Of a DNA stretch of 64,000 nucleotides, positions 4,694 through 34,729 are shown piece by piece. The position numbers were made by a program, and so were the translations under genes. The notes beneath the pieces were generated by a model, which searched no databases, was not told where the DNA came from, and saw only the letters and a program-made list of their open reading frames with translations. The DNA is taken from assembly GCA_010015585.1 (NCBI GenBank), contig ML975175.1; one strand, given 5' to 3'. The stretch comes from Eremomyces bilateralis CBS 781.70. Lineage: Eukaryota. Position 1 is the stretch's first letter; each line of letters begins with the position of its first letter.

Positions 4694-5038
4694 ATATGCT
4701 GGGACACGTTCGGCATGATCACATAGACCGCGTAGGCTTCCAGAAGCTATTAATTCGATGGTAATTGGTATACCAAGGCCAACATATGCTAAGTATATCT
4801 GGATAATGTGGCCAACTTGAGGAATGGAGAGGGTGTACGCGCGGATGGACTCTTCAAATGAACAAATGATTGCATGATATCAAAATTTTTGTTCGTACCC
4901 AGCACGTACCTTTGTATGGATATCCCTTCTTGCTTGCTGTGCGAGCGAACCGTGACATATGGAGTAATAAGGTATGTGTTCAATGAGCAACATCGACGTG
5001 TTCACCTAACAATACCCCATCGAGCCACCCCTTCTCCT

Positions 5039-5722
5039 TCATTTTAGTGCAGTTTGAGCAATCATTTTGAACATCTCCTATCGCCCCTTTTCCCAACCCT
5101 CACCTGCCATCTTCGGAAGCCCACCCACATAAATAACATCGTCGCCCTTGTCAAGTCCATCCCAAGCCTCCGCCGTAAATGTCTCCAGTGGCATCAGGAC
5201 GTGCTCTGGTACATGTACGCCTGGCTGATTTTTCTCGCTGTGCAGCTCTGTCTTCACTGCGGGAGGCACAATCTCCACAACCTGTACAACTCCTGGCCCG
5301 GCCCTCATCTGTTCCTGTAGACATATAACGAACGAGTGGAGTGCCGCTTTAGTTGCACTGTAGTTCAGACAACGTGGAGCGGGGACCAAAGCCAGGCCGG
5401 AGCTGATGAAAACCAGGTAGCCCTTAGATTGCGCTTGGAGGTGAGGTAGGAATGCCTTGACAAGATGAATGTACGAGAGGTAGTTAGTTGTTATTTCAGC
5501 ACTAACAACCTCTAGATTAACTGTGTCCGGATTGGAGAAGTCGAAGCTTCGCTGGATCCCGGCGTTGAGGATGACTGAATCTAGATCCGGGTGCTTCTTC
5601 ATGATATCATTCGCAAAACTTCCAATCTGGTCGAGCTGAGTGATATCCACCTGGTAGGCCGTTACTTTGTCCTTGCCGTGTTTGCTGGCAAACTCGTCCA
5701 GCCTGTCTTCGCGGCATCCAGT
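5039..5722 (-). pseudogene. Short-chain dehydrogenase (DltE-like), 3' part; gene interrupted by transposons
   Basis: LNAGIQR, YSATKAALH (YxxxK), EIVPPAVKTELH. Lacks the N-terminal GxxxGxG, which lies at 22962-23058. Probable premature TAG at 5078 shortly before a natural TGA at 5039. Confidence 0.9.
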
Positions 5723-8400
5723 CCCTTACTAGGTTTTCATGCCACTTGGCGTGGCCGCGCTAGCACCACCCCCTGAAGCACTTAGCTTAATAGTTTGGAA
5801 GAATTACGAGTTCTTACTTGTCAAGATGTCACATTTGATTTGTATGCAATCCTCATATAGTATAAAGTTGTCGCACGTGATGTGCTAAAATGGTTGGGAG
5901 TGAGGTGCTGTTGTTCCAGCAGCGAAGTTGTTGTATTGTGTAAGTTGTGTGTTCTAGCTGAATGCCTGGTCCCCAGGCCCTACAGATATACGAGAGTCAC
6001 GGCAAGATTATTAATGCAGTTTGTAGCCTTGGACTCCTAGAGCTCATGCCTTGGCCTGCGACAAAAGTAAATAGACACAATTACCATAGAGGAATCTAGT
6101 AGTATCTAGCTAGGTCTTTGACTGTGGAATGGTTCTATACAACTAGTACAGAGAGAAAATCCTTCTCCACAGATCTCACAGTAAAAGAAGGTCCTTCGGT
6201 CCTTGATTTGGTTATCCCTTAGCTTTTTCCACCTACACAACCAACACCACCGTCGCATCCCTCTTGAAATTCGTGCCAGGCGATGAACACCACTTCTAAG
6301 AGTAGTATGATACGGGAACTCCGTATTTGGCCGTACGTACGAGTTACCGGATCTCCTGATCCCTCGGTTGCCTCGAATTGAGGACCTTCCTGCTCATTGA
6401 AGCCCTGTACTACTCGGGGACCATGACCATCTGAGATACCTTTGATGACCATATTCCAGGCAAGCTGTAGACGGAAATCCTTAAGGCTCTGTAGGTATCT
6501 AATATTCTGCTTTCGAAACTGACATGTACCGAGGATATGAGCGTTCGAAGCAGTCGTATCGAGTATCCAGAAGAGAATAGGATACCATGTTTTCTGGCTA
6601 ATTAGGTGGGATGTGAAGTAAGCTCGGCGTTGATCCGCGATATCGACGCCTCCCATAAAGCTATTGTATAGTATGGCAGCTTTAGGTTGTAGAACCGGTA
6701 TCTCGTGGACCCCAGGAGGGTAGATTTGATCAAGTTCTCGCTGGTACGCAGCTGTACCAGTCGCGGGACGCCTCCGAGGTACCCAATCATTCTCTTCTGG
6801 CTCAAAAATGGTATGGAGGAAACGTATGAGTACCCGATCCTTCCATAAGAGGCTGGCAACATCGCGAACGCAGAGGAAGTCCTGCTTTTGAAGCGGCCAT
6901 CTGCAATTGTCCTTTACCTCTTTGAAGTGCTGTAACGGGTACTCTTTATACGACGTCCTAGTCGTCCCACAGGCCCCAATCCTCATTTTTCGAAGGACTG
7001 AGAGCAGGCGAATATCGGTAAAGTAGTTATCCATAAAGATAACAAACTTGCGGAGACTGACAGGAAGAGAGGCTACCAAGGTAACAACCGCCTTTGAGGT
7101 AGCCGTAAGCTCAAGATTCTCGTATCTATGGGGGGGCTGATAGTTTACACCATGGATTGATGATGTATCCTTCCTTCCTCCGGTATCAAAGCTTCCTCCT
7201 AAGGTAAAAAGAAAGCTATAAACATAGCCTCTATCGGCGAGGGCAAGGATTTTATAGCCAACAGGGATAGGCTTGCCTTTAATAGAGACAATCTCCTTTG
7301 ATCGACCCGTAAACTTGACCATAATCTCATCGATTGAGACGTAGTTTAAGGGGAGATATACTTGGTTGAAGCGAGCACCTAAAAGCGAGGCAATTGGTTG
7401 TACTTTGTCGAAGACGGAGGTCGGCTGCGGCTCTGTATCGGGATCAGAGGTGGATAATCCGTTTGATCTGCTTCTATCTTCGAAAGGACATAAACCTAGA
7501 GATACAGTGAAGAGGCCGCTGGCCATTCCTACTCCTGAGATCCCCTCGAGAAGCGATATTAAAGGTACCCATGTAAAGGACAAGGCCCAGCCATATCCGG
7601 ATATGGCCGGCGGTAACAGGCCTAATCGAGATTTCATGCTTCTGGGCGTACCGGTTGGAGTGCTCTGCGATCGTCTTATAAATGCCTTCATCAAATAGCT
7701 GGGAGAAAAGGACAAGCGGAAGATCCCATCGCTCAGCAAGTTCTTCGAAGGAAGCGGGAGGGCGATCGTGAAGCATTGGGTCTAGGGACTGACCATTGCC
7801 ATGGAAAATCCCGCAGCCAGTACAACCTGGAGTCCCACAGGATACACTCTGGGTGTCGGTAGCGCAGAGAGGGCCTTGGACGCCAATGAAGAGATCAAGC
7901 AACGCTTCGGGGTAGTGATAGTATGAGACGTATCCTTGCATCTTTTTAAAGTACGCCCCAGGCTACCCTAAAGGCCTCTTAGTAGCAGGATCAATAGCTA
8001 TGTAGGAGGCATCCCCAGGTTGTCCAATTGGCGTAGGAAGAGATCCAGCGGAGGATGTTGCAGGCTCAACCTGAGGTTGCTGTAATTGGGACTCCGGATC
8101 CGCTTCCGCAGCGGTGGTAGCATCAGACGGCACTCTCCATACAAATTCAGTGGTGAGCTCATCCTCAGATACCTCGTCATCGGAAGCGGTGGCGTCTGAA
8201 GCTGATGGGAGCATCGAAAGCATAGTTGATCGCTTTGATTGTACAGAGTAGAGTTGCAATGAGCAATGGAGCTGGCAAAAAGGCGCAAAGGCTGTAATTT
8301 TCGTACCGCGTTGTGATTGGAGCCTATTAGTACGCTAACTTAGCGCCACCAAGCCCCTCCCGGCACTGAAAAGGAATGGACCAGATGGACCGTGTATGGG
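5723..8400 (-). mobile_element. piggyBac-type DNA transposon with CCC..GGG termini and a GT dinucleotide duplication
   Basis: Ends CCCTTAC... / ...GTATGGG, flanked by GT on both sides (5721-22, 8401-02). Removing it restores the SDR reading frame. Contains a piggyBac transposase pseudogene. Confidence 0.82.
6106..8224 (-). pseudogene. piggyBac (DDE_Tnp_1_7/PGBD-like) transposase, frameshifted
   Basis: SIDEIMVKFTGRS, KPIPVGYK, FMDNYFT, YNSFMGGVDIADQ. The N-part (LFSQLFDEGIYKTIAEHSNRYA..IWLGLVLYMG) and Cys-rich tail (CWLC..CEIC..CTSCIEPFH) are in other frames. Confidence 0.9.
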
Positions 8401-10836
8401 GTAGCGATAACATGTCACAGAAAGTGACAGAATCTGTGTTTCTTGACGTTTCCCCACTGCTTCATTCCGTATTCGATTCTATACCCCTATTCTTTCCCTT
8501 TTTAGGGAATAGATCACCATTGTAAACCATATAAAATAGCTGCAGGAACAGCCTGTTTTCGTAGGATCCGGCTCTTCAGGATCAAGTTCAATCTATCTAC
8601 GCTCTTTTGGAATCTAACGGGGTTTTGTCGCAATTCGCGGGGTGATGATTAAGCACGTTCGCTGCTTTTGCTCAGTTGCTGTAGAGTCACAACGCAAGTT
8701 GGTCTTGACGATTCCCATTGTCTCCTCAAAAGGAGATCTAGCTAGTAAAACAGTTGAAGATAATTAAATACAAGGTAAATAAGACGACGGCAGGTGGACC
8801 GCCAGAATGGCAGGCTTGCCCAACCGTGCATGCTCATTGGCCGAAACCCATGATCCGAAGGTTTCCCGCCTGCTCTGCCCAGTTCGCCTGCTTCGACCTC
8901 CCATATAAAACGCGCATTCCACCATTCGTTCTTCTGCCGTTTTATTTCATCGCTCTCGTCTTCTTCCCCTTCCCTCTCCTCTCAAACCCCTCAACTACTA
9001 CGGCGACCGAGAATCCACGACCGCTCTTCATTCTTCGCTTGCTCCCTGCTCCACTGCGTCTCTGGTTTCGCTGCGTTCCCTAGCCGCCCCGCTCCCTCCT
9101 GATCGCCGTCTCAAGTGTTGCACTCTGTCCACACGGCGCTGCGGTCTCTTCTGCTGGTCATTTTATTCTCAAGGAGCTCGTCTGCCTGGATTGCTAGGCA
9201 TGCCTCCCGTTCCCTGGACCGTTTCTCTCCCTCTCGAGAGTGAGACGGTCGGTCTCCCTAAATCCGAATCCGAATCCAACCTCCTCCCTCTCCACGCTCC
9301 TGCCCAAGTCCAGCAGGTGGCCGGCCATCTCGCTCACATCCTGCTCGCGAGCTCGGAGTGGCCCACACAGCCCCCGGCATTGGGGCCCGTTGATTCCGTT
9401 CGGCGACGCCGACTCCAGCGCCTTGGTTCACCGTCATCCTCAATCCGAGTCATGGAAGTCGGTCACAAGGTCCACGGCTCATGACGATCCTAGACCCCTG
9501 TATCATTGTTTTCGTCGCTTTGCTGCCTACGTGGCACTGCCGGACTTGTGGGCTGAGCCGGTCTGGATGAGGCGGAGGTGGGGAAGGAAAAGCAAGGCGA
9601 CGGCGAGACGAGCAGTGGCGGTCGCGTTCATGCTCAAGGAGGGCCACGAGAGGGCGAGAGGGCGAGACGGTGAGACGGTGAGAGGCATACGCATGTTACG
9701 CTTCCTCCTTTAGCTCCTTGGCTTTCCGGAAGTAGTTGGTGAGTTGGAAATCTATCTGACACCCGGCGATCCCGAAGGATCTTCAAAAAACCTGCTCATC
9801 TCGCCTAGCCTGCTGAGCCCGCGTCTCAGGCAGCAGCTGGAGCGGTCGAGGGGATAGGTGTGGTCGGAGCGCAGGGGATTGAAAGGGGCGAAGGGACTGG
9901 CTCAAAATCTGGGACGTTATGGAACGATGACGCTGTCACCAGACACACATGATGCAGCATGGGCCATGGTTCTGCCCCAGAAAGGCCGCACCGCCATCAG
10001 GCGCGAATCTCGGACTGAGTTTCCCGAGAGAGCGCATATGACCGAATACGAGCCAATTCATACGTCGCCGTTCATGCGTTAAGCATCTCCGGCCCTTGTA
10101 TGGCTGAACGTTAGGGACGATGTGTTAGATTACGCGCTCGCCCCTTCGTCAAGAGGGAGGTTATCGGATGGAATACCCTAGAATGGTGGATTCGCGCGGA
10201 CGGAGCTCTTGTTCCGGTCCAAGATTGAGCTACCCTTTTCCGAGCCGCCTTTGGAAGCGGCAAGTTCGGAGGCTGAGCAGCTCCATGTCGCACATTATCG
10301 CATGACGAGGGCTTTCGCGCCGCTTGAAACGCGGGATCCTTCAGGGAACGAAGGCATGACGCGGGCCTCATTCAAAGGCTGCAATGATGCAATTCAGGAT
10401 CGAAAAGGGGACACGTCAGCTCAGCCTCCTTCGCTCCGGCAGATGGGCGAGCAGGCGATATCATGCTTGATTGACTTTCTACGCTTCAGCTGCACATGTT
10501 TGTTCCATCCTTCTACCTAGAAGACCGCTGCAACTGCTCCAGGAAATGGGTATGCTCGTCTAGCGCTGGCGATGGCATTTCATTCCCTTACCCCTTTGAT
10601 TGAATCAATAGCCTCGGTCTTATCAGGCTCACTCTTCTCACAAGATCCGATTTAGAAGCGCCGAGCCAGAGCTGGCGGATAATCCGCTCACGGGCGAGCT
10701 GGATAAACAAGGCGAGCCTGCTTCCCGGCATAAAAGGTTTCCCTGCTCCCTGCTCCCTCCTTTCAAAGGTCAGCGACTCCTCTACACTTTTAAAGGATCA
10801 CACGTATTCTAGAGTGAAAACTGCGCAAAAACGGAC

Positions 10837-12943
10837 ATGGCGGTCACGACAGCCCCTTCTTCCTTCGATGCGCAATCGCAAAATCAGTCGCCTGATAACT
10901 TTCGCAATTATTCTGACCCGCCAAAAAGCAGATGTGGAGCTGATGCCATTCTTGACATCTCTTTTAACGACCCATGGACCGATATTGATGGTATTCTGAA
11001 GGGCGAAGGCTTGACCGAGCCAAAGCCCACGCAGGAATCAGCGTGCGAGGCATTCACAGGAAGCTGTGCAGGTGAGTTACTAGAGATGCTGCGCGAACAG
11101 CTTCCGAAGAGGACCATAATCTAATCTCTCTTTAGATGCAGCTATACTTATCGAAGACAGCGAATCGGACACTGATTCCGAAGATGAGCTGCCTTCTCTT
11201 AACGCATTGTTCAGTTCGGGCTCCCAACCGGAAGTTGGTGGCACGCCGGTTGCAGATAGAGTCTGTGATTCGAGCTCGTCACAAGCGATAGAGAGCGGCG
11301 AAAGTCCGCCGTCTGGACCGAACGGCGAACTGTCTACTGGTGCCGACATGTCCTGGAGTGTTAGCGACTTATGTGAGCCAGTGTATCCCTTCCAGTGCTT
11401 CGCCCTATGCTAACGCAAATGGTAGCCAACTATTCTGCTATGGAAGTCGGCGTCTTTGTAGCGGACCATACGCGACTGTCATTTGAGAGCCTTGTTCCAT
11501 CTACTGAAACGGCCGAATCTAGCAGCCTGCAACCTTCAGGTATGGCCTTACCGCGCTCTAGATTAGGCATAACCCCGACTGACAGTTTTGTACAGAGGAA
11601 ACAGATAGCATCGCCGACGAAAACTATGACCCTCTAATCAATCCGTCGTTCCTTGAACAGAGGAAGCGGGTCCGTTCCTCCTCCCGCACGACCCCGTCCA
11701 CCGACATCGATGTTGCGCTCGGCACTAGATCACAACATCAGATGGATAGGCAACCGCCGGAGAAGCCGCGTCCGGCGAAGCGGTCGAGACGATCTCGTTC
11801 CAGCGAGGCGCCACTATCCGTCACCGCTGTCCCCGATCCTGGGGTCGACTGTTCAGGGCGGCGCGAGACTCCAAGCATGTTTCATCGTGTAGGGAGGGAA
11901 CAATCGGGCTCTGTCGATGCCGAGGCATCTCCCCAAGACAGTGATGAGAGAGACGCAGCGGATACCAGCGCTGGCCCACGACCTGCCTCGTCTCCCCGTG
12001 CAATAAGGGCGTACCAGCGACGTGCGACCGACGATCCGATTCACGAGCATAGCCGGCTAGGAGACACTGCTGACTATGGTCGTGGCTGTGGCACGGACGA
12101 AGAGCACGCCGTGGATGATGATGACCACGGAACAAGGTCGCCGAAACCGCCACCAGGGCGACGGCATCGAGGCAAGATCCAACGCAGACGTCGGCCGTTC
12201 CAGTCCGATGCTGAGAGGAACACTCGCACGCTCGCACGGGATCAGCAGATTCCACGCTTCTTAAGCAGTCCGCATCCCGACTCCTCTGCACCGAGAAGAG
12301 ACGATAGCGGCCCACAGGACAGTGACAAGAGCGCACCCTTCACCATGGCCCGGCATACTGTGGTCGACATTTCTCTTCGTCCAACGCCGGGGACACTCTC
12401 CTGGCAGCTACGATGAAGGTTGATAGCGATATGCAGGCAATTTCTTACGGCACGCTGCTCAAGCTAATAGAGAATATTTTGGGCAATACAGCGAAGATAC
12501 ACGACATGACACTCAAACCGCTTACAGCAGGCCAATGGCTGTTAACCGGGTTCCTTCACAGTCATTACGTCAACGCCGGCGTTACCACGCGGCACGAGTT
12601 TACACCAAATCCGCGAAGGGATACTACCGCCGCGACCACTATCCCAATGGCCAACACTCCCGACTCAGAGGATGACAGCAGCGTGGGCGGGAGCGATAGT
12701 AGCGTCAGTGACGATGATATCAGCGATAAGAAATACATTGACCAAGGTGTGGAAGGCGGAACGCGCCGTCGGTGGGCGCCTTTAGAGGAACAGCGTCTGT
12801 TGGCTTACAAGGCCGAGGGGAAGCCATGGCCATGGATCTCTAGAAAGTTCCCGGACCGGACACCAGGTGCTGTGCGCGTCCGTTGGCACATGTTACATCG
12901 GTTGCAGGAAGGAAAGAACGAACGAGGCAACGGACCCACCTAG
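10837..12943 (+). pseudogene. Spliced gene for a low-complexity protein with a C-terminal Myb/SANT-like domain; apparent frameshift near 12400
   Basis: Introns 11072-11135 and 11540-11595. C-terminal RRRWAPLEEQRLLAYKAEGKPWPWISRKFPDRTPGAVRVRW. ORFs 11742-12416 and 12413-12943 overlap in different frames. Confidence 0.65.
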
Positions 12944-13759
12944 CAGGAGGACAACTCTTCGAAAAGGTCGGGTTTTGGATACGTGAAGAAGTGAAGGAAT
13001 AACGTCTTCTTCACTTAACGAATTAACGATCCAGTCTTTGCAGTACTCACAATTTTATCTATGCTGCTGAATTCAATCTTCACTCAATGCCACTTCCGAC
13101 ACTTCCTAAGATCTACCCTAGATGAAACGCGAGGATACTACAATGATTCCTTTAAATCCATACAGCGCATTCGAAATCGGTCCTTAAGGATAGCCGAACG
13201 TATCGACGCAAGCCCACTCGCACAGCAGCATGCAGAGATGCAGCCTTCACGTGAGCAACAGTGTCTTTCCTGTGACAGATTCGACTTGGAACTCAGGAAA
13301 TGGGTGGACTCCCGTTCTCGACAACCGGCATATTTTCGTAGTCACTTCGCCGGCCAAATGGTGGATGACGAAAGCGGCACCCGATCTTTTTGGGGAGCCT
13401 TGAGATTCTACTATCTAGGATCTAATTGGCCCAGATTGTTCCGGATGAAATAGAACAAGATGGCGATGGCCATTGTTACAGCCGCTAGCGAAATCGCCTT
13501 CCGCCTTTTACACCTCCAGGAATTCTCACTGAACAGCCCACTTTCAGGTCATGGCGTAAATCTTTACGCCACGATTCTTAGTGATCAATTTCCAAGTGTA
13601 CAACCACCTCCCCATCATGGTTCATTTACTCGTTTATCGAGAAACAATATTTAAGTCTACAAGGAAACTCGATTCCTGAAACACTCTCCAGTCGCTGGTC
13701 TGAATAACTTACTTCGCTAGGACCTTCATCGATAGCGATAGACCGTTTCGGATGTTCGC

Positions 13760-13970
13760 AAGCAACGCCTACAGAAGCTAGCCAATGGTGCCCAAAAGTC
13801 GTTCGCTGGTTGTGCCCTCCTCCTCGACGAGAATCGGCTCTTGTTCAAGCAAAACATTGAAAGAAATTGTCGCAAATCGACACGGTCAACGGTAGTCGGG
13901 AAGGAGAAAATGATAAGTTAGAAGGACATTGTCGAGGCCAACATGAAGCATGATGCGAAGGAAGCTACGG
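13760..13970 (+). pseudogene. Relic of a Fot1/pogo-family transposase C-terminus
   Basis: KQRLQKLANGAQKSFAGCALLLDENRLLFKQN..RKSTRSTVVGKEKMIS*KDIVEA matches the conserved tail of fungal Fot1-like transposases; in-frame stop. Confidence 0.65.
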
Positions 13971-14219
13971 CAGTATGGATAGGGCTACAGATGCACTAAA
14001 AACAGCGGCCCCACCAGTAGCGTTGGCACGTGGAATGACAGAGTTTCATTCTTACTGACCTGTCCTTCACCGATGCGGGGTAGCTTCAATGCACAGAAGA
14101 GTTAAATTGGGCCATTCCTTGTCTTGAAGTATTTTTCCGGGCTGACCTCCGCGCTCTGCTGCGCAACACTGATTAGAGTCGATTCCCGGAGTTCATACTA
14201 TCAAGCCAGATATTCCACC

Positions 14220-16187
14220 ATGGCAGATATATATGAACAAGTCTTTACCCTTAGTCCGATACCGAGTGTTATCCTCAATCCTGAGCTTCGCATCCAAAGA
14301 GCTTCGAACAGCTTCCTTCACCATACAAAGTTGCGCGTGGACGAGTTGTGCGATAGTAACTACCTCGAGCTACTCAAAGATCGAGTGCTGATATCAGACA
14401 CCGATATGCGTCACGTCCGCGACGTCATCCATGGGACGATTCAGACGCTGGAAGTACAAACAGGCCGGCGCATCCGTACAAGCCCAGGGGCAGTGTGGCA
14501 ACTGCGTGTGGTTCCAACGGTCATGAACGGTGCCCTCCTCTACCTGCTGGTAGAATGGCTGCAAGCTGCAAAGAGAGAAGAGAAAAACAGTCTAATCGGC
14601 AATGGTTTGGCAAGAAGCGAGGCACTCCGACTACTGGTAGGAGCTGTCAAGGATTATGCCATATTTTTGCTTGACACCGAAGGCATCGTGCTGACTTGGA
14701 ACGCCGGTGCCGAGCTCAACAAGGGATACAAGCCTCACGAAATCATCGGCAAGCATTTTTCTACATTCTATAGCGAGGAAGACGTAAGAGCAAACAAGCC
14801 TGCGAAAGAACTGGAGGTCTGTCTGCTTGAGGGAAGGGTGGAAGATGAGGGGTGGAGGTACCGCAGAGACGGCACCCGCTTTTGGGCCAATGTCATCATC
14901 ACAGCGATCTACGATGTCGACGTTCATGTGGGATTCGGTAAAGTTACTCGGGACTTAACCGAGCGCAAGGCAGCCGAATCTCGCCTTCTCGCCGCATACG
15001 AGGAGAGCGCAAATCTAAAATCGGAGTTCCTTGCCAACATGAGTCACGAAATCCGGACACCAATGCACGGGATGATATCAGCTAATAAGCTACTTCTCGA
15101 CACTCAGTTGACCGAGGAACAGCGAGATCTGGCAGACATCATCAACGACTCCGGAAAAATCATGTTACAGGTCATCAATGACATTCTCGACTATTCTAAG
15201 CTGGTGTCCGGCAGTTTCTCACTCTCCTCGAGCATCGTCGTCATCACCTCTATTGTCGGCTCCGTGATGCGCAACTTCCAGACAATTCTCAAATCTGGCG
15301 TGTACTTTCAAAGCTTTTCTGCCGAAGGTATTCCCAGGTCCATACAGGGCGATCCTCTTCGCTACCGCCAGGTCCTCCAAAATCTTGTCAGCAACGCCGT
15401 CAAGTTCACCGACAAGGGTTTTATAGGCATCCGCACATGTGTCCATTCAGAAGACGACCACACGTATACAATCAAAACCGAGGTTCAGGATACCGGGATT
15501 GGCGTTTCTGAGTCTGCAGCCAGCTCTTTGTTTACGCCTTTCCGGCAGCTTGACAATACCACCACCAAGACGCACCAAGGCACAGGTCTTGGCTTGTCCA
15601 TTTCTAAATCTTTGGTCGAGCTGATGGGCGGACAGATATGTTTCGCGCCCAACCCCGAGCGCAGCGGCAGCGTATTCTGGTTTACGGCAAAGTTCAATAA
15701 GATAAATATCTTGGATGGAATGGAAAGCCTTACAGCCCAATTTGATGGGACAACCCCGTTGACTCCGAATCCGGACGACTCCACCTTATACCGAGAATAT
15801 TTTGGAACCAAGAGTCTTCTACTCGCCGAAGATAACATTATCAATCAGAAGGTTATGGTCAGAATGCTACACTCACTCGGTTTTATGCGAGTTGACACAG
15901 CGGTAGATGGTGCTCAAGCAATCAACTTGGTTATTAATAGTCCAAAGAATTACGACCTCATCTTAATGGATATCAGCATGCCCGTCCTTGATGGCATCGC
16001 AGCAGCGACCCAACTCAGAAGATCTGGGTGTCGACTACCGATCATTGCCGTCACGGCGAATGTCCTGAAAGAAAGTCGAGAAGATTTTCGTGCTAAGGGA
16101 TTAAATGACTATGTTCCAAAACCTGTTGACAGAAATCTCTTGACAAAGATTCTGATGGAATGGCTGGTTCTAAAGACGTCCACGTGA
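14220..16187 (+). CDS. Hybrid sensor histidine kinase (PAS-PAS-HisKA-HATPase-REC), intronless, intact
   Basis: PAS (YAIFLLD..WNAGAE..WRYRRDGTRFWANV), H-box FLANMSHEIRTPMHG, N-box NLVSNAVKFT, G-boxes DTGIG and GTGLGLSI, receiver LLAEDN..LILMDISMPVLDG..PKP. Confidence 0.95.
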   Translation: MADIYEQVFTLSPIPSVILNPELRIQRASNSFLHHTKLRVDELCDSNYLELLKDRVLISDTDMRHVRDVIHGTIQTLEVQTGRRIRTSPGAVWQLRVVPTVMNGALLYLLVEWLQAAKREEKNSLIGNGLARSEALRLLVGAVKDYAIFLLDTEGIVLTWNAGAELNKGYKPHEIIGKHFSTFYSEEDVRANKPAKELEVCLLEGRVEDEGWRYRRDGTRFWANVIITAIYDVDVHVGFGKVTRDLTERKAAESRLLAAYEESANLKSEFLANMSHEIRTPMHGMISANKLLLDTQLTEEQRDLADIINDSGKIMLQVINDILDYSKLVSGSFSLSSSIVVITSIVGSVMRNFQTILKSGVYFQSFSAEGIPRSIQGDPLRYRQVLQNLVSNAVKFTDKGFIGIRTCVHSEDDHTYTIKTEVQDTGIGVSESAASSLFTPFRQLDNTTTKTHQGTGLGLSISKSLVELMGGQICFAPNPERSGSVFWFTAKFNKINILDGMESLTAQFDGTTPLTPNPDDSTLYREYFGTKSLLLAEDNIINQKVMVRMLHSLGFMRVDTAVDGAQAINLVINSPKNYDLILMDISMPVLDGIAAATQLRRSGCRLPIIAVTANVLKESREDFRAKGLNDYVPKPVDRNLLTKILMEWLVLKTST

Positions 16188-16649
16188 ACTCGGCCGACGT
16201 ACAAGAGGTCACTTAGCACGGAGCATCATGATACGCGGAACAGCATAGATAATCCAGCATCGACGAACAGCACAGCAAACAGGCCCGATAGGATAGAGCT
16301 AAAGCACTAGAGGTGCAAATGGTGGAGATGAACAAGAGGGTTCTTGTCCCGGAGCATCCAGACACGAAACAATCTGGCCTTCACGTGGAGAGGACTCGGC
16401 GGACAAACAGAAGCTGTAGGACCGATATAGGATAGTGTATAACTGCAGATGAATATCCAAAATCTCTACGCAGCCAGGCAGCACCTCCATGTTCGAAACC
16501 CCCATGTCTCTTCAGAAGAACATGTGCCAGCAAATCTCAAATGATACTGGCTTGCATCTTCATACTGAGCTCGGGGCCGTCGCTCTTGGTCAGTCATTGG
16601 CTTCATTGGGCACCCAAGAGCGACAAAGCCCCAAGCTCCACTCCGAATA

Positions 16650-17407
16650 TCGGTCGTCATCCAGCTGTCGACCGTGGCTCGATCTCCTCTAAACAGAGAT
16701 GCGTCCGGGGACTTAGAGTTATCGTGTCGGCGCTCTAGAGGGGAAAATCTAGGTGCCGTCGTCCCTAAATGATATGGTCGGGATAAGACAGAGAGTTCGG
16801 AGGGTTCGCGTGACAACGTAGCACTCGCTACACCCATTCGATTGTTCGCATCCTCGGCGGCCCGCGGCTTCGAGATGAGGATTTCAATGACAAGCGCGTC
16901 CCGTTCACGCTCTTTCTGTAGCTACTTCAGTAGTTCGGTCAACACTGTAAGTCTCGCTCCCACAACATTCTTCTCTTGGCGCAGTTCTCGATTTTCGTTG
17001 GTCAATATCATTACTTCCACTCGGAGACTCTCGTCCGTCAAGGAACCTGCGCTCATCTTCGCTCGTTTTTCAATTGGCATCAACACCTCCCGCCGGAATT
17101 TGGGTCCATGGCCTTGGGCCCTCGAGGAACTGAGACTCCGTACCTGGGCATAGGGGATCGTTTTCGCTAGCGTAATCTCTCGCGTCAATGATTCCTACGA
17201 TGCTGTCTGCTGCTTCGATTTCGGTATCGGCTTCGGGGTTGTTTTCATTACTAGGAGCGTAGCTACTTCATCGTCCGAGATGTTGAAACGTGGAGAAGGG
17301 GATTCTCTCCTCATGAGTTCAGATGGATTGTTCTTGGCATCGGATAGCCTGCGTTGTCTCAGGTAATCCTCCTGTGTCTGAGTATCCCCGATGATCCTTG
17401 CTGTCAT
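16650..17407 (-). pseudogene. Truncated Gag-like ORF of an LTR retroelement, with two in-frame TAG stops
   Basis: ORFs 17195-17407, 16922-17188 and 16466-16837 share one frame. A coiled-coil region is followed by PDASLFRGDRATVDSW (Gag-like PDxxxFxGxRxxxxxW). Confidence 0.45.
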
Positions 17408-17500
17408 TGTTCTGGTGACTGTGGTTGCCTTTGGCCCTAGTTGTCTTTGGCCCTGGTGGTCTTGGATCGTGTGGTTGTCTCTGGGATTGGTGCTACGTAG

Positions 17501-17610
17501 TGTTAGGTGTTCACGTGCGATCGTATTTCAGCATTGACCCTCCGAGGCAAGAGGGGCCTAGCGCCAAGACTGTCCTGCGTAAAAGTCACGTGAGACATCA
17601 TATCGTGACA
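17501..17610 (-). repeat. Possible short LTR upstream of the Gag-like relic
   Basis: TG..CA bounded (TGTTAGG...CGTGACA), ~100 bp upstream of the Gag-like ATG; no second copy in the window. Confidence 0.3.
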
Positions 17611-18194
17611 TTATGACACCTGTTGTACAATACCCAGGACGCTGTACCAGGACACGTGAAGTACTGAGACTGTAGTCCCAGATTACTGGTGCGAGGTTCC
17701 ATATCAGGTTCGGTGCTTTCCTAGTAGCCTGGGCGGCTTTATTATTACCCACGAATTCCCGCCCTCAATGGCTCGGATCTAGGGATGTGTAAAGTGGGAA
17801 AACTAAGGACTTTACCGTAAAATAGCCTTAGATTTCTAGAAAACGGAGGTCAATCTGCCGTCTTTTTGTTTAAAAGGGGAAAACACTAAGCTGTCCTAAA
17901 TAGGCCTAGCCTAGGGGTAATTGGCAGTGGAAGGAAAGTTAGGGCAGTAGAAACCAACAGGGGCATCTTGCGACAGGTTTTCCCACCGTATCGCGGCATT
18001 AATCACCTGATTGAGCGAAACCGCTATTTATCTTACAGTTATGCGCCCAATTATCGCTTAAAGCACCATAGACGACATTAACAGATGGTTCTATCGTGTC
18101 TTTCCCTCTTGTTCTCTCAAATTATATTGACGTTCGCTTATTGGAAAGTCTATCGTTTCATCTCCAAAGTTTACCTCTGCAAACGACCTCGCAG

Positions 18195-21100
18195 TGATCA
18201 TCAAGGCTGCTCTACCTCTTAAATCCCCAGCGGATTGGCGTGACTGGTACAACTTCGTCAAGTCCTACGGAAATCGAGTGAGAGTATAGAAGTACATCGA
18301 CCCTACGACCGAGGAAGATCCCGAGGAACCCCAGATATACAGCAAGGAGGAATACAACAAATTGACGGAGTACGACAGGGACCAGATCGCTCAATCGAGA
18401 AAGCTCGAGGAGAATGTTCACAAAGCGAAAGTCAGGATAGGAGATATCATCTTCGCAATCGTACCTGAGGAAGCGAGGCGTGGTTTCTCTATCAACGATA
18501 CACCACGTCAAATGCTCTCCTACCTCAAGTCTCGATATGGACCTGACGAAAACCAGTACGAGGAACTGGTGGAAACTGCCTGGGAACGCCTTCGCGTCCG
18601 TCCAAAGCGGATGAAGCTACAAGACTGGATCCTCGAATGGAAACACTTTAAGGAATACGCAGAAGAGCTAGGGCAGGAAACCACCTATACCGATCTGAAG
18701 CTTATCCGAGAACTCATCAAGATCTGCAGACGTGAAGATCTTGACCGATTTGCAACTCGATCTGAGGATGCTATATGGGTTGCAAGAGAACCAGGAGGTA
18801 ATCCGGCGCATCTCAAACTGAATCATCACATCGAGCTCTTTCTAAAGACGTACCCTATGGAGATACCGAAGCCTATGAAAGGGGCACTTTTCGCAACTCT
18901 CCAAGGAGAGACTCTAGCGCAGACGTCTCAACCATCACATATGCCCGCTACAGCGGCATCCCCGTCGTCGACTCCCGTCCCCCCTCAACAAGAGAAACGA
19001 GAGAAGACTCTCCCAACCTGTGTGTGTGGGGAGAAACACTTGTACAGGCGTTGCCCGTACTTCAATCGAAATATTAGGCCCTCAGGTTGGAAACCGAACT
19101 CTAAGATCAAAAACCAAATCATATCTCACTTGAAGGCTAATCCAGAGGCCAACAAGTCTCTACGGAGGGTCCTTAAAAGAGAAGGAATCAGTTTTCCTGA
19201 TTGGTTCCCAGCGGAACCATCCTCTACCACATCTACGAATTCGGAATCGCGTGAGGATGGATCCTCTCATGCGTTCGCTACGCGAGTGATGGAAGAATCT
19301 CAGGCGTTCGCCATGCAGGCGTTCTCCGCATTTGAGCATACAGAGACCAACGAAGGAAGGCCATACGACCAGAGTTTCTACATGGACAACCTGGCTTCTC
19401 ACCACATCTGTGCAGACATTACACGTTTCACGAACTACGTGTCTACAGATGGTATAATGAAGACCGGAGACTCGTACTCATCCTATGTGGGCATAGGAGA
19501 CGTTAAGATCCCTGTGGTAGGAAAGCACGAGAAACAGACATTCATCACTATCCTCAACGTCTACCATATTCCGGGTTTCCACATTAATATCGTTTCAGCC
19601 AGGATGTTCCGAAGGAAAGGCTATGTACTTGATGAGTATTCCCAGGCAATCCGCAAGCTTGACGATAGGTCTCTCCTTTGCCATATGTATCTTCGCGATG
19701 AATATTGGACGTTTACGAGCGACGTATTAGTCCCTGTACAGAAGGGAATCGCATTCGCGACACGATCGTCTTAAATTTCTATCTCAACCGCTCCTGAGGA
19801 GGTGTGGCACCGTCGGATGGGACACGTTGGCATAGACAGCGTGTGAAATCTGGTGGGATCCGTACACGGTGTGTCAGTTACCATAAACCCTCCATCGCAT
19901 CCAGGCTCACAGAGTCTATGCGAGACATGTACGGTCTCTCAGATGAAAAAACAAATCTCAAGAGTTCCGCAGCATCGCGGTACTCGCCCGTTTGAAAAGA
20001 TCCACGGAGACCTCATCGCCTTTAATACAGGACTCTCAGATGAGACGTAGGAGCGTCATTTCTACTGTGGACACGCACGTTTTTATTTCGTCTACCCGAT
20101 TCCAAATCAACGTAAGGAGACTATCTCACGATGTCTCACTAAGACCCTTAATACCATTAGGACTATAGGCTATACCGTCCAGTTTCTTCACTTTGATAAT
20201 GAAGCTGCGATCGAGTCTGACCATGTTACTTCTATCATTGAGGACCACGGAATCATCCTAGAACTGTCTGCACCGAAAACTCTAGCACAGAAAGGGCCAG
20301 CGGAAAGGTCAGGAGGTATACTTGTTACCGTCGCACGCAAAATCTGCGCAGACTCTCCTCTACCAGAGAAGCTATGGACCTATTTCGTGAAACACGCAGG
20401 ATATCTCCTGAACAGGGCTCTTGTGCAATCCCCTCAGTGGAAAACCCCCTACGAAGCTGTGTTTGGTAGGAAACCAAACCTCTCACACCTCAGGATGATA
20501 GGATCAAAGGCCTACGTCCTAAAGACGGATATCGCAAAGAAGGACAAGATGGAACCACGTGCATCAATTGGTTTCCTTCTTGGATATGAAGCTACAAACA
20601 TCTTTAAAGTCTGGATTCCAGACGTTGGGAGGGTAATCACATCGCGAGACGTCCGTATCGACGAGACTATCCGGTACGATCCAACAATTGATAGGAACTC
20701 CACCCTCCCCCTCATAATCGGTTTGCGCTCCAGGCATTCCTTGACGATATTGAAATCGACATACGTGCGTATATCGATGCTTTCGAAAATACCCCGGTGG
20801 TAGGTAATTACCGACCACTCGCTCTCTCAGACCCAGGACTGTCTACGCCCGCGGGAGAAATCGCGCCCGACACACGGATAGACAGGTCAACTGCAAATGT
20901 CCGCGGATCTCTTTCTTATCTTCCTACCCCCTCATCATCGAGGAACCCAACACCGGCAATACCTGCTCTACATTCCCCTACTCTTATCTCATCTGGGAGG
21001 AATGAGGACTATTCTGGCGAACCAGACGTTCCACCGGACGCTCTCATCGCAAGCCAACAGTCGGTGGAAGGGCCTACTTTACAAGTCGGTGGCCTAGACA

Positions 21101-22650
21101 TCAACAGTACGACGGACACGGATGGGACCAGAGGAGGTAGTACGCACGATGATTACACAGGATTTACTAGACGGTCATTATCCACGCCCTCAGCCATCGG
21201 AGGAACACCTATACCGGCCCTCTAAGAGGAAGAGGAAGAAGAGAGGCAAATTCATGAACAGATCGCTTCAAATATTGCCTCCCCCGTAGGAGCGTATCAA
21301 GAGAACAGACAAAGGAAGAGTGCTTGCGAGAAACACCCATCTCAAAAGGCTAGGGACACGATGGAGACAAAGGCCTTTAAGAACTAGACGAGATATGCCT
21401 CACGTAAACAGGCGCATCTCACGATGATGCTCAATGCGACCCAATTGGCCCCATTACTCTATGCGTTCGCAACAACACGTACGGATCGCATTCATCGGGA
21501 TAATCTTCCTCTACCACTAAAACATTAGGGAGAAGTCCTATCGCGCCTAGACTCGCACCACTGGATCCAAGCATCGAAAGGAGAAGTCCCTATTGTGATA
21601 AGAAACGGCACGTTTGAACTCGTTCCCATACCGAAGAACGATCCTGTGATTCCTCTCAAATGGGTCTTTACGTACAAGTTTGATGCCGACGGATATCTCA
21701 TCAGGTATAAGGCGCGAATCTGCGTACGAGGATATCTCCAAGAAATTCACGACCGGGACGCACTGTACGCTGCGACAGGCGCATACACCACCTTCCGAAT
21801 CCTGATGGCCCTTATCGCTGCACGATTCAATCTTCTCGATCATCAGCGTCCTCCTCTTACTCCGCTCTCCACATCATTCGACAATTACGAGCCAAATCCT
21901 AACGCAACGAAGGAACAGGTCACGGGATACCAGCAGCGCATAGGATCTCTCATCTATGCTGCGGTAATTTCACGCCCAGATATCTCTCACGCGGTGAGCC
22001 GTCTAAGCGAGTTCAATACACGCCCTAGACCTAAGCACCGACGAGAGGCTGATCGTTGTATCTCCTACCTATATGGAACTCGTTTCCACGCGATTGAGTA
22101 CTCTTTCGACTCTTTCGACTCTGACCCATCGGTCTCTTCACGACCTTTCCGGTCCTATACAGATGCATCTTTCCCAGACGACCGCACCACAAGGAAATCG
22201 TCTCAAGGATATCTCATCTCACTTTTTGGTGACCCTATTGCTTGGCAGACATCCAAGCAAAAGAGTATCACTACCTCTACCACCGAAGCGGAACTCCTCG
22301 CCGTCTCTTACAGATCTAAGGAGATGATGAGGATGATACGTCTTTTCCGTGATCTTCAATTCGATCCGGAGTGCCCTATCGTCGTTGAATGCGACGATGA
22401 CCAAACGGTCGGTATCATTACCAAATCCATGCCCATTCTCACCACCAAACTACGCCACGTAGACATTCATCAGTTCTGGTTGCGTCAGGAGGTGGAACGG
22501 AAGGACATATGCGTGGAATAGATTCCGTCAAACAAACAGGTGGCTGATGGGCTCACGAAGATCCTCTCTATCGCGAAGCACCGTGTCTTCTTTAACCAGA
22601 TAGGTCTGCAGGACATCTACGCACTTGTTGGAGGACCAAAGGGATCGTGA
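18195..22650 (+). pseudogene. Copia gag-pol (Gag-PR-IN-RT-RH) with stops, frameshifts and an internal RT deletion
   Basis: DWRDW..V*KYIDP; Zn knuckle CVCGEKHLYRRC; PR FYMDNLASHH; WHRRMGH; IN FEKIHGDL/FDNE/GPAERSGG; RT LKWVFTYK..YKARICVRG (YVDD region missing); RNase H YTDASF..STTEAE..ADGLTK. Confidence 0.92.
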
Positions 22651-22699
22651 GATCTATACAATCCAGACATCCCCTTCAACGGTGATATCTGAGGAGGTG

Positions 22700-22961
22700 T
22701 GTCACAGAATATCTATATTTCTTGGCGTTTCCCCACGGCTTCATTCCGTATTCGATTCTATACCCCTATTCTTTCCCTTTTTAGGGAATAGATCATCTTT
22801 GTAAACCCTATAAAATAGCTGCAGGAACAGCCTGTTTCCGTAGGATCCGGCTCTTCAGGATCAAGTTCAATCTATCTACGCTCTTTTGGAATCTAACGGG
22901 GTTTTCCCACCGTGTCGCTGCATTAATCACCTGATTGAGCGAAACCGCTATTTATCTCACG
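22700..22961 (+). repeat. Copia 3' LTR
   Basis: Near-identical to 8413-8625 + 17981-18037; starts TGTCACAG; terminal CA mutated to CG. Confidence 0.93.
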
Positions 22962-23058
22962 TAACATGCGTGCCGTTCTCCAGAAACCTCTCTGCCAAGG
23001 CGAGACCAATGCCAGACGTTGCGCCAAGAACTAAGGCTTCCTTATACGTGACTGGCAT
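22962..23058 (-). pseudogene. Short-chain dehydrogenase, 5' part (Rossmann motif)
   Basis: MPVTYKEALVLGATSGIGLALAERFLENGTHV; continues in frame through 8401-8407 into 5720. Confidence 0.9.
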
Positions 23059-24697
23059 CGTGAATGAAGTTGTAAACACTCGCCGATCGATGATAGAATT
23101 GGATGGAGGAAAGTCTTAGAGAGCCCTAAAGTGCGGACGATGGCGAAGGTGTTGGGACCGGATAAACAATGATGATACTTTGTGGAATTTGGGAGGCTAG
23201 GAAGGACCAAGGCGTTGGCAATTCCTTCAGGTGGCGCAACAATCACAAGACACGTCCTACTAGCCACTCATGCGAGCTGCACAGTATTAAAGCGCCAGGA
23301 ATGATCGGGAAAGAGGGGAAATACGAAAAATACGAGAAGGCCATATCTGGCTGCCGCGATGGCGGGATTGTTGATGAGAAGGCTCAAATACGACCACTCA
23401 GTGAGTCCCTTCGGCCGCTCCTCTAAAACAAGGCGCTGCCGACTCCAATATCACACTGATATCTAGCAAGGTGCGAGAGTTTTAGAAGACATCATTGCAT
23501 CAGTGTGCATGGTAGTGTAAAAAGGTAGAGAAGAATCAGATATGGAAACCAAAGTTGGATAGGATCGTGTTTAAAAGCAATGATTTCAGCATCACCTTGT
23601 TAATTGGGGCACCGTGCCGTAACCTGCGGCTATTACCCTCTGCACTCGCTATCCCATCGCGATGGCTCGTCTTGTCTGTTACTGATATCCGCAAACCCCC
23701 GTAGCTGCCAGTGGTTTTGCCTCGCCACAGTTGCCGCCAGTCCACGGTTTGCAAGAGGATGTGCATCTTGTACCTAAGGCATGAATATATCATCATGTCC
23801 TGGTTTGTGTGCATCATTGTTTAGAGGGCGTGTCCAAAAATAGTGAAAGTTGAAGCGGTACCATAGATTGACGTTAATAAGATCTGCTTGATGTCTTTGG
23901 TTTCCTTCTCCCCTTCAGTCCATGACTAATGACGGTCAGATATGATACGTATAACGTAACGTCGCTCTTGCGCCTATATAAACATCCAAGGTTAGAAGAG
24001 AAAACAATCTCGCTAAAATTCTATCGTCGCGGGATCGGAGATAGCAGGCAAGCTGCTTGACTTCGAGATAAGGGGCAGCCTCTGTGAGAGCGTGTGGCTG
24101 CGAGGACTAATAGTGCTTGGGTGAGAGGCAATCTCAATGGTCGTGCTGGGTCCCCAACCTCGAGCAGCCAGGTGGATCGGTGGTCAGTGGTCCGTCGTCA
24201 CCTGCTTACTGTGTACATCCGGACGACTGTGGAAATTCTGGTTCGCGAGACCATACGCAACGGCAATCGAGCTATTGAATCCACAGTCAACTATTGTACG
24301 AATTGGTACGATAATTCTTCTCGTATTCCTCATGCATTATTTTACGGTTACAGGGGCTCGACCACTTCTACGGTATCTGCTCTGCCAGTCAACGATCGAT
24401 TATTAATCACACCAGACAGTGGTATATTAATCTACCTTGTGGTTCAGTCACATGCATATGTGGCAGGACGGTACTTTGCACTGGGAGATACATAAGAGCT
24501 GGTCAACGGCGTTTTTTTTCTCGAAGAGTCCAGATTCTCTCTCGAGCGGCAGTTGAGCAGCAGTTAACCGTCTATTGACGCAGATTTCGATCGCTTGTTC
24601 GGAGTCACTCATCCCGAAACGGAAGTATTTTTGCGGTCAAAACCTGAACCACTTGTCCATCAGCCTGCACGCCGCTCTAAGGCATTTCACTTGCGTT

Positions 24698-27531: not shown

Positions 27532-28709
27532 CGAGAAGCGACGCATACGTTAAATGATCTAAGGATGAAGGATGACTGCGGTAGTTATCATAATGTTTAT
27601 AATAATTAATCTGTAATACTTACCAGGATACGACGACCCAAGAACGAGGTTTGTAATGGGGATTGGTGTCATAGCAGGACTCTGATACGAGAAATGGGCG
27701 AACAGACTGAAAGTGGAGAGGCCACACCATCTTATAATATCAGATGGCAGGTTTCTCTTTCGTCGAGAAGTTTAATTCTTAATATAACTGTCCTGTAACT
27801 CACGATACGGCAACTCCCATTCCCAATCTATTAGCGACTTGTGCATACCTTGTTACGCTTGTGTCTGTGTCAGCGTTGCAAACCAAGGCATCAGCTCCAG
27901 GAGCCTAAGGCTAAAAACTGCGTTATAATTTTGCCATGAGTGTTATGGTCCCAGACTGTGGCATGAGTCCTTGGGTATGGTTGATTGCGATGGAGATGTG
28001 GCTAGTGGATTGCTTAGGGATTATCAGAAAAGCAAACATGGTGACACAACATTACTCTAGAGCAGCAAAGGGGAGAGTCGCTACTTCGAGTACAAAGGCG
28101 CTGAGGGATTTCTTCCTTCTCTCTCTCTAGTTTAGATTAATGGAACTTAGTAATCGCAGACCTTGCGCTGTTGCGCATCCAAACCGTGTTAATAATGAGT
28201 CTCGTATAAGTTTTCTGCTGCCCACCCCCGATCCCGCCCACTTCGAAATCAGTTGCACTAACTAGGATGGTTAACTTAAGTTTAACCAAGTCTTAACTAT
28301 TACTAATTCATTCCATATGGCGGGCCACCCATTCGCACGAGGAGATGGATTTCTTCCTAGAGCTCTAGGGGAAATCTCAGCCGACAAGCACGAAGTTGAG
28401 AAAGTCATGAGGAATGTCACAAAGGACATTGGCGACGTATGGGGTGATGTGTAACACCCCAACGTCGGACAGTTCGTGCAGTTGAAATGTTGAATTGAGG
28501 GCATAGACCACTGATATGTGGCATTAAAGGCGTTCCACCACCATGTGATGGGGCAGAGACCGGAGTGGGGCCTGCGGGGGTCTTGGCGGAGGGCGATCTC
28601 TACTTTGCCGAGTATTAGCCGTCGATGGGGTAATCAGGGTCCGCTGCCAACCAGGGTCCAGGAGTATCCTCCGGCGTAGCTGGTAATTACTAATTATCCC
28701 AACTCCTGG

Positions 28710-33600: not shown

Positions 33601-33617
33601 TGGAGATGCCGCATGTA

Positions 33618-34065
33618 CTATGGTTACAGGCAAAAGTATTGTTAGCGCGGCGCTAATCAGGGGTATCCAACCTAAACCGTTTTTGTCCTTTTTTCATTAC
33701 AAATTAGATATAGATTTCATTATCGTGTATAGCCTCCATTTGCGCCTATCACATCCTAGCATCTCTAGCCCATTGATTCGACAACTCGTACAGGAATTCC
33801 TCTAGTATAGCCTCCCAAGCATCGTTAATTCCCTCCCGAAGCTGGTCATAAGTTAATCAGGCATCCCCAATTCCCTATAGTGGTCCTGGATCTAGTCCTT
33901 CATCTAATTCCATACTGTCTCAATAGGATTCAGGTCCGGAGAATGAGCAGGCTAATAGATGGTGAAATCTATATCCAATTAGTAATGGAAGAATGAACAA
34001 AACCGGTTTAGGTTAGACACCCCTGATTAGCGCCGCACTAACAATACTTTTGCCTGTAACCATAG
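33618..34065 (-). mobile_element. Internally deleted Tc1/impala-like element (MITE-sized)
   Basis: TA TSD (33616-17, 34066-67); ~100-bp TIRs starting CTATGGTTACAGGCAAAAGTATT. Interior encodes *PAHSPDLNPIETVWN*MKD*I..DAWEAI..VIGANGGYT (Tc1 C-terminus). Confidence 0.92.
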
Positions 34066-34729
34066 TAAACGTGATTGAAGATATCCAACTTTTCCGATGC
34101 CTGGAAACACATAAACTGAGCTATCGTTCTACTTATTCACCACTGAAATCGGAGGTTAGATTGGTTAAATTCGGACGAGATCAGATGCATCATGCGTGGG
34201 ACGACTGCAGTCGGATCACCTTCGCGAAAGAAACAGGCCAATATTACGTGATATATCCATCAGTACCATGCGATCGACCGCTGTTTTCGGCCCTCTAAAA
34301 TTATGCAAGTTTCCAATGCACCAGTCCACTGGTCCCGACCACTACTCAAGGCAGGGCCTTTCCGAGTTTACCCACGTTCCCTCCTTTCCCTAGAGGGCGA
34401 TAAGAAGGAATACGATGTTACCGAATGGCTGGAACACTGGCGACCTGGCGCTACCGTAACCTCTGCGTCCAGAGCTATCGAAACCCCCCCTCCAGATGAC
34501 AAGGATCTCCGCATGGTTGTAGCAGCTGCGGGGAAGGTATCATTGTGTGAGGTTCAACACATGTCCCTAGCCTGAGAGGCCTCGGGTTCGACAGCCGATG
34601 GATTGATTAATGCTTGAGTAGGTATAGGTAAGTACCTTATAAGGTCCCTACTCCCTAGGGTACTTGCGAATTCCCGGGAACCACACACAAACCTTCAAAC
34701 TACTTACTGCTACTCTACCGGTCATCGTC

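Follow-up and report, generated by a model that had tools for sequence, protein, structure and literature searches.

The hybrid histidine kinase gene at 14220..16187 (+ strand) is, with a probability of about four in five, the cargo of a small Starship element of the Prometheus (fam05) type that is either non-autonomous or derelict. It lies in a 64-kb stretch of DNA (the window, to which all coordinates refer) in which a copia LTR contains a short repeat, the short repeat contains a captain-less Starship and the Starship contains the kinase. The preliminary description of this DNA, which presented the kinase as cargo inside nested transposons, was right in placing the gene in a mobile element within other transposons but named the wrong vehicle, and the nest has one layer more than the single TG..CA element proposed there. 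The carrier has the workings of a Starship derivative, and the missing captain keeps it out of the group.

The outermost layer is a broken copia retrotransposon (8413..22961, + strand) flanked by the target duplication TAACA (8408-8412 and 22962-22966). Its 3' LTR occupies 22700-22961, while its 5' LTR is split into two halves, 8413-8625 and 17976-18037, which are identical to the 3' LTR at 245 of 256 positions and differ from it at 11. The copia frame is broken into at least nine stop-free pieces across two frames, and a frameshifted piggyBac-like transposase gene (DDE_Tnp_1_7; 6219..7962, - strand), which adjoins the nest and is not implied to enclose it, also changes frame, as expected from the earlier remark that the flanking transposon frames are damaged. 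Around 21800-21840 the copia reverse-transcriptase frame apparently misses a large internal part, since 330 codons accommodate everything between the RT start and RNase H. Left of the piggyBac-like gene a short repeat of very high depth (5840-6063) is skipped by contigs with the joint 5858-6064; an inverted copy of 66 bp of it lies at 27875-27939, and the repeat is probably a MITE or a solo LTR. Another inverted repeat at 33616-34067, with 80-nt arms (91%) set 292 nt apart, is likely a MITE of about 450 bp. An Rfam search of 5000-24000 gave no matches.

The insertion that splits the copia 5' LTR (8626-17975, 9.35 kb) is bounded by a perfect 8-bp TG..CA inverted repeat and by the 5-bp duplication GGTTT (8621-8625 before it, 17976-17980 after it). 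This unit had been taken as the vehicle of the kinase, a claim that the junctions contradict. Junction evidence was drawn from contigs of four public runs (X1-X4). In run X1 the TG..CA termini occur with other flanks, the left one on five contigs and the right one on seven; three of the four runs (X1, X2 and X3) contain a contig in which 8770 is joined to 17943, and one X1 contig running leftwards from 17877 continues into nine letters that equal 8765-8773, which is the uninterrupted target. The recurring termini and the joined contigs therefore assign the TG..CA ends to a 247-bp repeat, which is itself interrupted, its left 150 bp lying at 8626..8775 and its right 97 bp at 17879..17975. The exact empty-site junction is read from one contig, by a loose end of nine letters, and represents a paralogous copy of the repeat rather than the orthologous locus; the site is filled in all three runs that contain the window stretch. 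The 247-bp repeat is either solo-LTR-like or a MITE, the 8-bp inverted repeat and the 5-bp duplication being equally expected of a solo LTR. Another X1 contig passes from the right end of the repeat (17975) through 30 other letters into copia-LTR-like sequence at 22846, a further instance of the repeat lying within or beside the copia LTR family.

It is improbable that the whole TG..CA unit was mobile as a DDE/integrase-type, pack-type element, taking the kinase along and creating the GGTTT duplication on insertion. Such an element would have the perfect terminal repeat, the duplication splitting the LTR and the recurrence of both termini elsewhere, and if the short repeat is a MITE the composite could have moved after the entry of the Starship; against this stand (i) the short joined form of the termini; (ii) the Starship ends that the interior possesses at the very break; and (iii) the interior itself, in which a transposase search of the 115 stop-free frames of at least 40 aa gave no match and the kinase region is unique sequence. 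A Ginger-like 9.35-kb element was also considered and dropped, given the joined short-repeat contigs and the matches to fam05 ends.

Just within both breaks the arm TAAA-N6-GACGGC faces inward, and these are its only two sites in the window. The arms delimit an element of 9,097 bp (8776..17872, - strand) with its captain (5') end on the right and its 3' end on the left. The 5' end (17855..17878, - strand) is made of the arm and a 6-bp junction spacer (17873-17878), the 3' end (8770..8791, - strand) of GCCGTC-N6-TTTA(C) and a 6-bp junction spacer (8770-8775). Compared with published ends in Table S7 of PMC11162782, which was searched with the window motifs so that six to eight of the matching letters are pre-selected, the right end agrees with two fam05 5' ends at 16/19 and 14/18 letters, and the left end with two fam05 3' ends at 13/17 and 12/19. 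Among the matches listed, motif and spacing are shared by three elements (aspfum15_s01319, colfru1_s04050 and colfru7_s04082), all of fam05, which is Prometheus; in the other elements listed GCCGTC stands in other surroundings. The consensus patterns made from published ends find one match each in the 64 kb, and 1 and 4 of 100 shuffles equal them. The inner inverted repeat has little weight by itself, being equalled in 13 and in 15 of 500 shuffles. The case for fam05 is made by the two ends jointly with the way they face and their place at the empty-site junction; membership is assigned from end sequence alone, the captain that defines the family being absent. Terminal inverted repeats of the fam05 type, a feature by which Starships are recognised, are present at both ends, and Prometheus-family elements often insert into other transposable elements according to the available text of PMC11162782.

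The right end recurs outside this locus. Five X2 contigs share it and diverge inward of 17840, and a 6,485-nt contig of run X4, from a second organism, holds 35 letters of the 5' end (17840-17874) with a different outer flank. The outer flank of the X4 contig starts with a spacer resembling the published fam05 ACTA repeat. The two junction spacers in the window share four of six letters, the left one being that of the target, and the ACTA core of published fam05 elements is absent from them. We considered that unequal spacers might arise by a Tn916-like coupling-sequence mechanism or by mutation of an ordinary repeat, and one site fits both; among the papers listed on such coupling sequences none mentions Starships in its listing. 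That the ends are merely fam05-like, the two-ended insert belonging to some other family of tyrosine-recombinase elements or of Starships, appears very improbable, since motif and spacing are fam05-exclusive among the Table S7 matches listed, although the spacer letters are unlike those of both published fam05 elements, ends vary within Starship families (PMC11162782, available text) and the 3' junction TTTAC is the repeat given for Phoenix-family elements in the accessible part of PMC12257634.

The DUF3435 captain that comes first at the 5' end of a Starship is missing here: none of the 115 interior frames matched DUF3435 or any recombinase (Pfam, run without a known-captain control). The captain's expected place is taken by a 353-codon frame that is interrupted by two TAG stops (16466..17527, - strand), for which, read-through included, there was no homologue, no Pfam match and no Atlas match of at least 0.9; by its resemblance it may be gag-like. 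A decayed coding fragment upstream of the kinase (13658..13993, + strand), recognised from sequence only, gave no Pfam match and may derive from a Fot1/pogo-type transposase, whose C-terminus it seems to resemble. Inward from the 3' edge runs a spliced Myb/SANT-domain gene (10837..12943, + strand) with one frameshift near 12390. A tblastn search with its paralogue P0126 recovers the gene in five pieces, its Pfam Myb match is below the cut-off (E 4e-4), and GT..AG joints of the gene family are found in run X3. Three named paralogues are from Eremomyces, which points to a host that is probably a Dothideomycete; over the region searched, two of the three are 76 and 86% identical. The family counts 258 relatives at E ≤0.001. 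Cargo combined with an edge MYB/SANT gene opposite the captain end, a frequent though not a required trait of Starships, is thus found here; the available text of PMC12256816 places MYB/SANT genes at the far edge from the captain and gives 9% as the share of elements in which the MYB/SANT gene stands alone. From the Starship 3' end to the Myb gene there are 2 kb (8804-10800) that are represented by many variant contigs, X3 included, and gave no Pfam or Rfam match; they are possibly a leader or a non-coding transcript conserved in the element family.

The kinase frame runs from ATG to TGA through 655 codons with zero internal stops. All of its Pfam domains score above the cut-off: PAS (residues 147-248), HisKA (267-330), HATPase_c (377-492) and Response_reg (534-644). 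The phosphorelay motifs that had been read from the sequence are all confirmed, namely H276 (in SHEIRTP) with the N box (388-396), G1 (424) and G2 (454), and in the receiver the acid pocket E537/D538, D584, T612 and K634. The gene had also been described as intronless, which holds in so far as it is a single frame and aligns over its full length with relatives of 655 aa, so that an intron is not required. The trait is not peculiar to this copy, however: relatives in five metagenome loci (L001, L002, L003, L005 and L007) are likewise single ORFs, and intronlessness is therefore uninformative on capture. A PDB search with the protein returned generic kinases only. If expressed, the protein would, by analogy with its family, act as a soluble sensor whose PAS region controls autophosphorylation of H276, and the phosphate would pass from H276 to D584, giving the host phosphorelay one extra input. 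In the accessible part of PMC13452588 the transfer from group IV receivers to HPt is weak in vitro and the phenotypes of TcsA mutants are disputed; as the published mutants are mild or disputed in phenotype, any benefit of the kinase to its host is probably small.

Relatives were taken from the best 120 of 7,991 matches (8,000 candidates scored). The closest 21 of these 120, with 55-86% identity and lengths of 644-672 aa, are all environmental, and 18 of the 21 carry the source label TcsA. The first named relatives among the best 120 are Sordariomycete proteins with 53-55% identity; the Neurospora cluster that includes 'two-component system protein A' (XP_957446.1) is 54% identical over 98% of the kinase. 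A FastTree phylogeny was made from 53 chosen sequences (47 of the best 120 matches and six locus ORFs), most of the named Sordariales matches being omitted as redundant and neither Aspergillus TcsA nor any other fungal kinase group being sampled. In this tree the kinase falls in a 12-member clade (support 1.0) within a 24-member clade (0.997) of exclusively environmental sequences, the named Sordariomycete orthologues are separate from the 24-member clade, and the root is unsupported. The phylogenetic check proposed earlier is thereby answered in part: the best named matches are labelled TcsA or two-component system protein A, but the tree spans no other fungal group. By the labels of its sources the kinase would belong to group IV (TcsA/Fos-1), and the PAS, HisKA, HATPase_c and receiver domains with their His, Asp and Lys residues, by which this group is defined, are all present.

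With Aspergillus TcsA/Fos-1 and Neurospora XP_957446.1 it shares the domain order PAS-HisKA-HATPase-REC, the lack of an evident membrane segment and every phosphorelay residue; it differs from these group IV kinases by a shorter N-terminus, by its place in a clade of its own made of 644-672-aa environmental sequences and by being housed in a mobile element of a probable Dothideomycete. The receiver beta-4 motif is Val-Thr in the kinase and Met-Thr in the Chaetomiaceae matches, neither having the Val-Ser given for Chaetomium hHK4 in the accessible text of PMC11224324. One survey, as far as its available text goes, places group IV in Eurotiomycetes and Sordariomycetes only (PMC6324907); the best 120 of the 7,991 matches also include Coniosporium and Hyaloscypha, and the group is therefore wider than the range given in that text. 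Class IV kinases are expanded in Fusarium oxysporum, one of them on a lineage-specific chromosome (PMC6001611, accessible part).

A scan of metagenomes, from which 80 loci were kept, yielded nine fungal-type TcsA genes, one of which (L001, 2,108 nt) is in the close clade and is too short for its flanks to show. The metagenome TcsA loci share no other part of the element, and the arm pattern occurs in 0 of 81 loci. In L007 (747-6035) a distant TcsA-type kinase has, 1.3 kb upstream and oriented alike, an intact Fot1/pogo transposase gene, and this transposase gave no match to the window fragment at 13658..13993. A scan of viral sequences for the kinase returned one partial match, of bacterial type. 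That the kinase was a long-standing host gene which unrelated insertions, or a rearrangement, enclosed where it stood, its Starship-like ends being chance or parts of separate elements, is hardly credible: a GC3 of 0.56, which we count as within the range of the neighbouring host genes (0.57-0.87), the TcsA relative among ordinary genes in L003 and the TcsA-type gene named in another Dothideomycete, Coniosporium, would accord with it, but a gene in place cannot explain that three nested targets (copia duplication, LTR halves and repeat halves) rejoin exactly.

The PAS hybrid kinase class with a strong expansion in fungi, which the preliminary description may have had in mind, is group XI; the present gene carries the label TcsA. 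The suggestion that mobile elements have served here as a route of expansion finds no backing at this locus: the kinase region (12810-17808) assembles into unique contigs with 0 differences, its X1 depth is 230-257 against 219-230 in the unique flanks, and it stands at single-copy depth in both DNA runs. Summed depth does not equal copy number and contigs can hide copies; as observed, the kinase appears to be single-copy with no hint of a second close copy. The contigs of the four runs showed the element as a whole only once, and its unique interior gives no sign of movement in trans.

Whether this copy is under selection had been left to dN/dS, RIP and transcription. Against L001 the dN/dS is 0.16 with dS at 1.31, near saturation: the lineage has been under constraint, which tells little about this copy. 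At 272 columns that are invariant in the other 10 sequences the kinase has six private changes, among them G474C, G618E and L624R; the others have 1-22 (median 5). Neutral drift since the copia insertion, with LTR divergence as the clock, would be expected to leave 1.1-1.5 stops in the frame, with a probability of 0.23-0.32 for none. The copia's own rate (a hand count of seven in-frame stops over about 4.6 kb) gives about 0.05, which is a lower bound because the Starship arrived later than the copia, and a clock set by the one lesion of the Starship's Myb gene gives about 0.37. The probability of no stop under neutrality is thus 0.05-0.4 depending on the clock; the intact frame therefore does not show selection, and the copy may be drifting neutrally. 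The RIP composite index is -0.47 to -0.66 over the kinase and at most +0.13 anywhere in 1-30 kb, so the contrast with the flanks that had been suggested is lacking, there being no signal in either. Run X3, which is RNA only by guess, has a 4,583-nt contig with 0 differences over 12810-17392; the spliced joints of the Myb family are likewise found in it, but so are a DNA-type joint and a contig of 4,615 nt that covers the broken copia, and for these reasons it is neutral on expression of the kinase.

On the preferred reading, that of a Prometheus-type Starship with the kinase as cargo, we propose that a captain tyrosine recombinase would have joined both arms into a circle, which would then have integrated at the 6-bp spacer in an AT-rich stretch of the short repeat, the latter sitting already in the copia 5' LTR. 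The captain may have been deleted after arrival, which would leave a frozen wreck, or before it, in which case the element would have moved in trans. For Hephaestus the available texts describe excision of the element by its captain, in circular form, followed by integration at a short core (PMC10104507; bioRxiv 10.64898/2026.09.21.753150), and a captain can act in trans according to the accessible part of PMC10104507. A two-ended remnant with a kinase inside suggests a part for such elements in carrying signalling genes to new places and from fungus to fungus; a single case by itself shows no expansion, no transfer and no benefit.

Here a complete signalling sensor is placed, to the base, within an element derived from a Starship, in a host class (probably Dothideomycetes) for which the accessible text of one survey gives no group IV kinase (PMC6324907). 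The element is a small natural substrate for asking how little end sequence suffices for Starship movement in trans and whether Starships carry those fungal kinase groups that are patchy or expanded; tools anchored on captains would miss captain-less elements of this kind. A bolder and rather unlikely extension is that the compact environmental TcsA clade of about 650 residues represents a Starship-borne lineage which spreads group IV across fungal classes, two-ended captain-less Prometheus-type elements being moved in trans as small gene cassettes. Were this so, Starships would be a route to new phosphorelay inputs in fungi and the patchy spread of group IV would be explained.

A search of open text, outside which subscription papers and bioRxiv supplements lie, listed no account of TcsA as mobile cargo, and in the papers listed for both Starships and histidine kinases the kinase term stands in a reference title. 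Table S7 of PMC11162782 has at least seven HisKA rows among its cargo. One of these elements, the Galactica-family (fam07) pensp.9_s08575, carries a 1,977-bp PAS-HisKA-HATPase_c-Response_reg gene (pensp.9_KAF4764961.1) like the kinase described here, compared by its listed domains only, but that element is about 500 kb long, bears a captain and belongs to another family. Captain-less Starship regions have already been published as 'Derelict' (bioRxiv 10.1101/2021.12.13.472469); as described in the accessible texts, these and the MYB/SANT-only regions (PMC12256816) resemble the present element in having no DUF3435 gene, persisting cargo and an edge MYB/SANT gene, and are defined by gene content, whereas here both recombination ends and the target are mapped to the base. 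The nearest counterparts are the fam05 elements aspfum15_s01319 of Aspergillus fumigatus and colfru1_s04050 of Colletotrichum fructicola (PMC11162782, Table S7), which have the same end sequences, spacing and orientation, are likewise inserted in another transposable element and hold cargo between their ends. They measure 49 and 73 kb, their DUF3435 captain lies some 450 bp in from the 5' end and their repeat is of the ACTA type, whereas the element described here has 9.1 kb, no captain and CC-type spacers.
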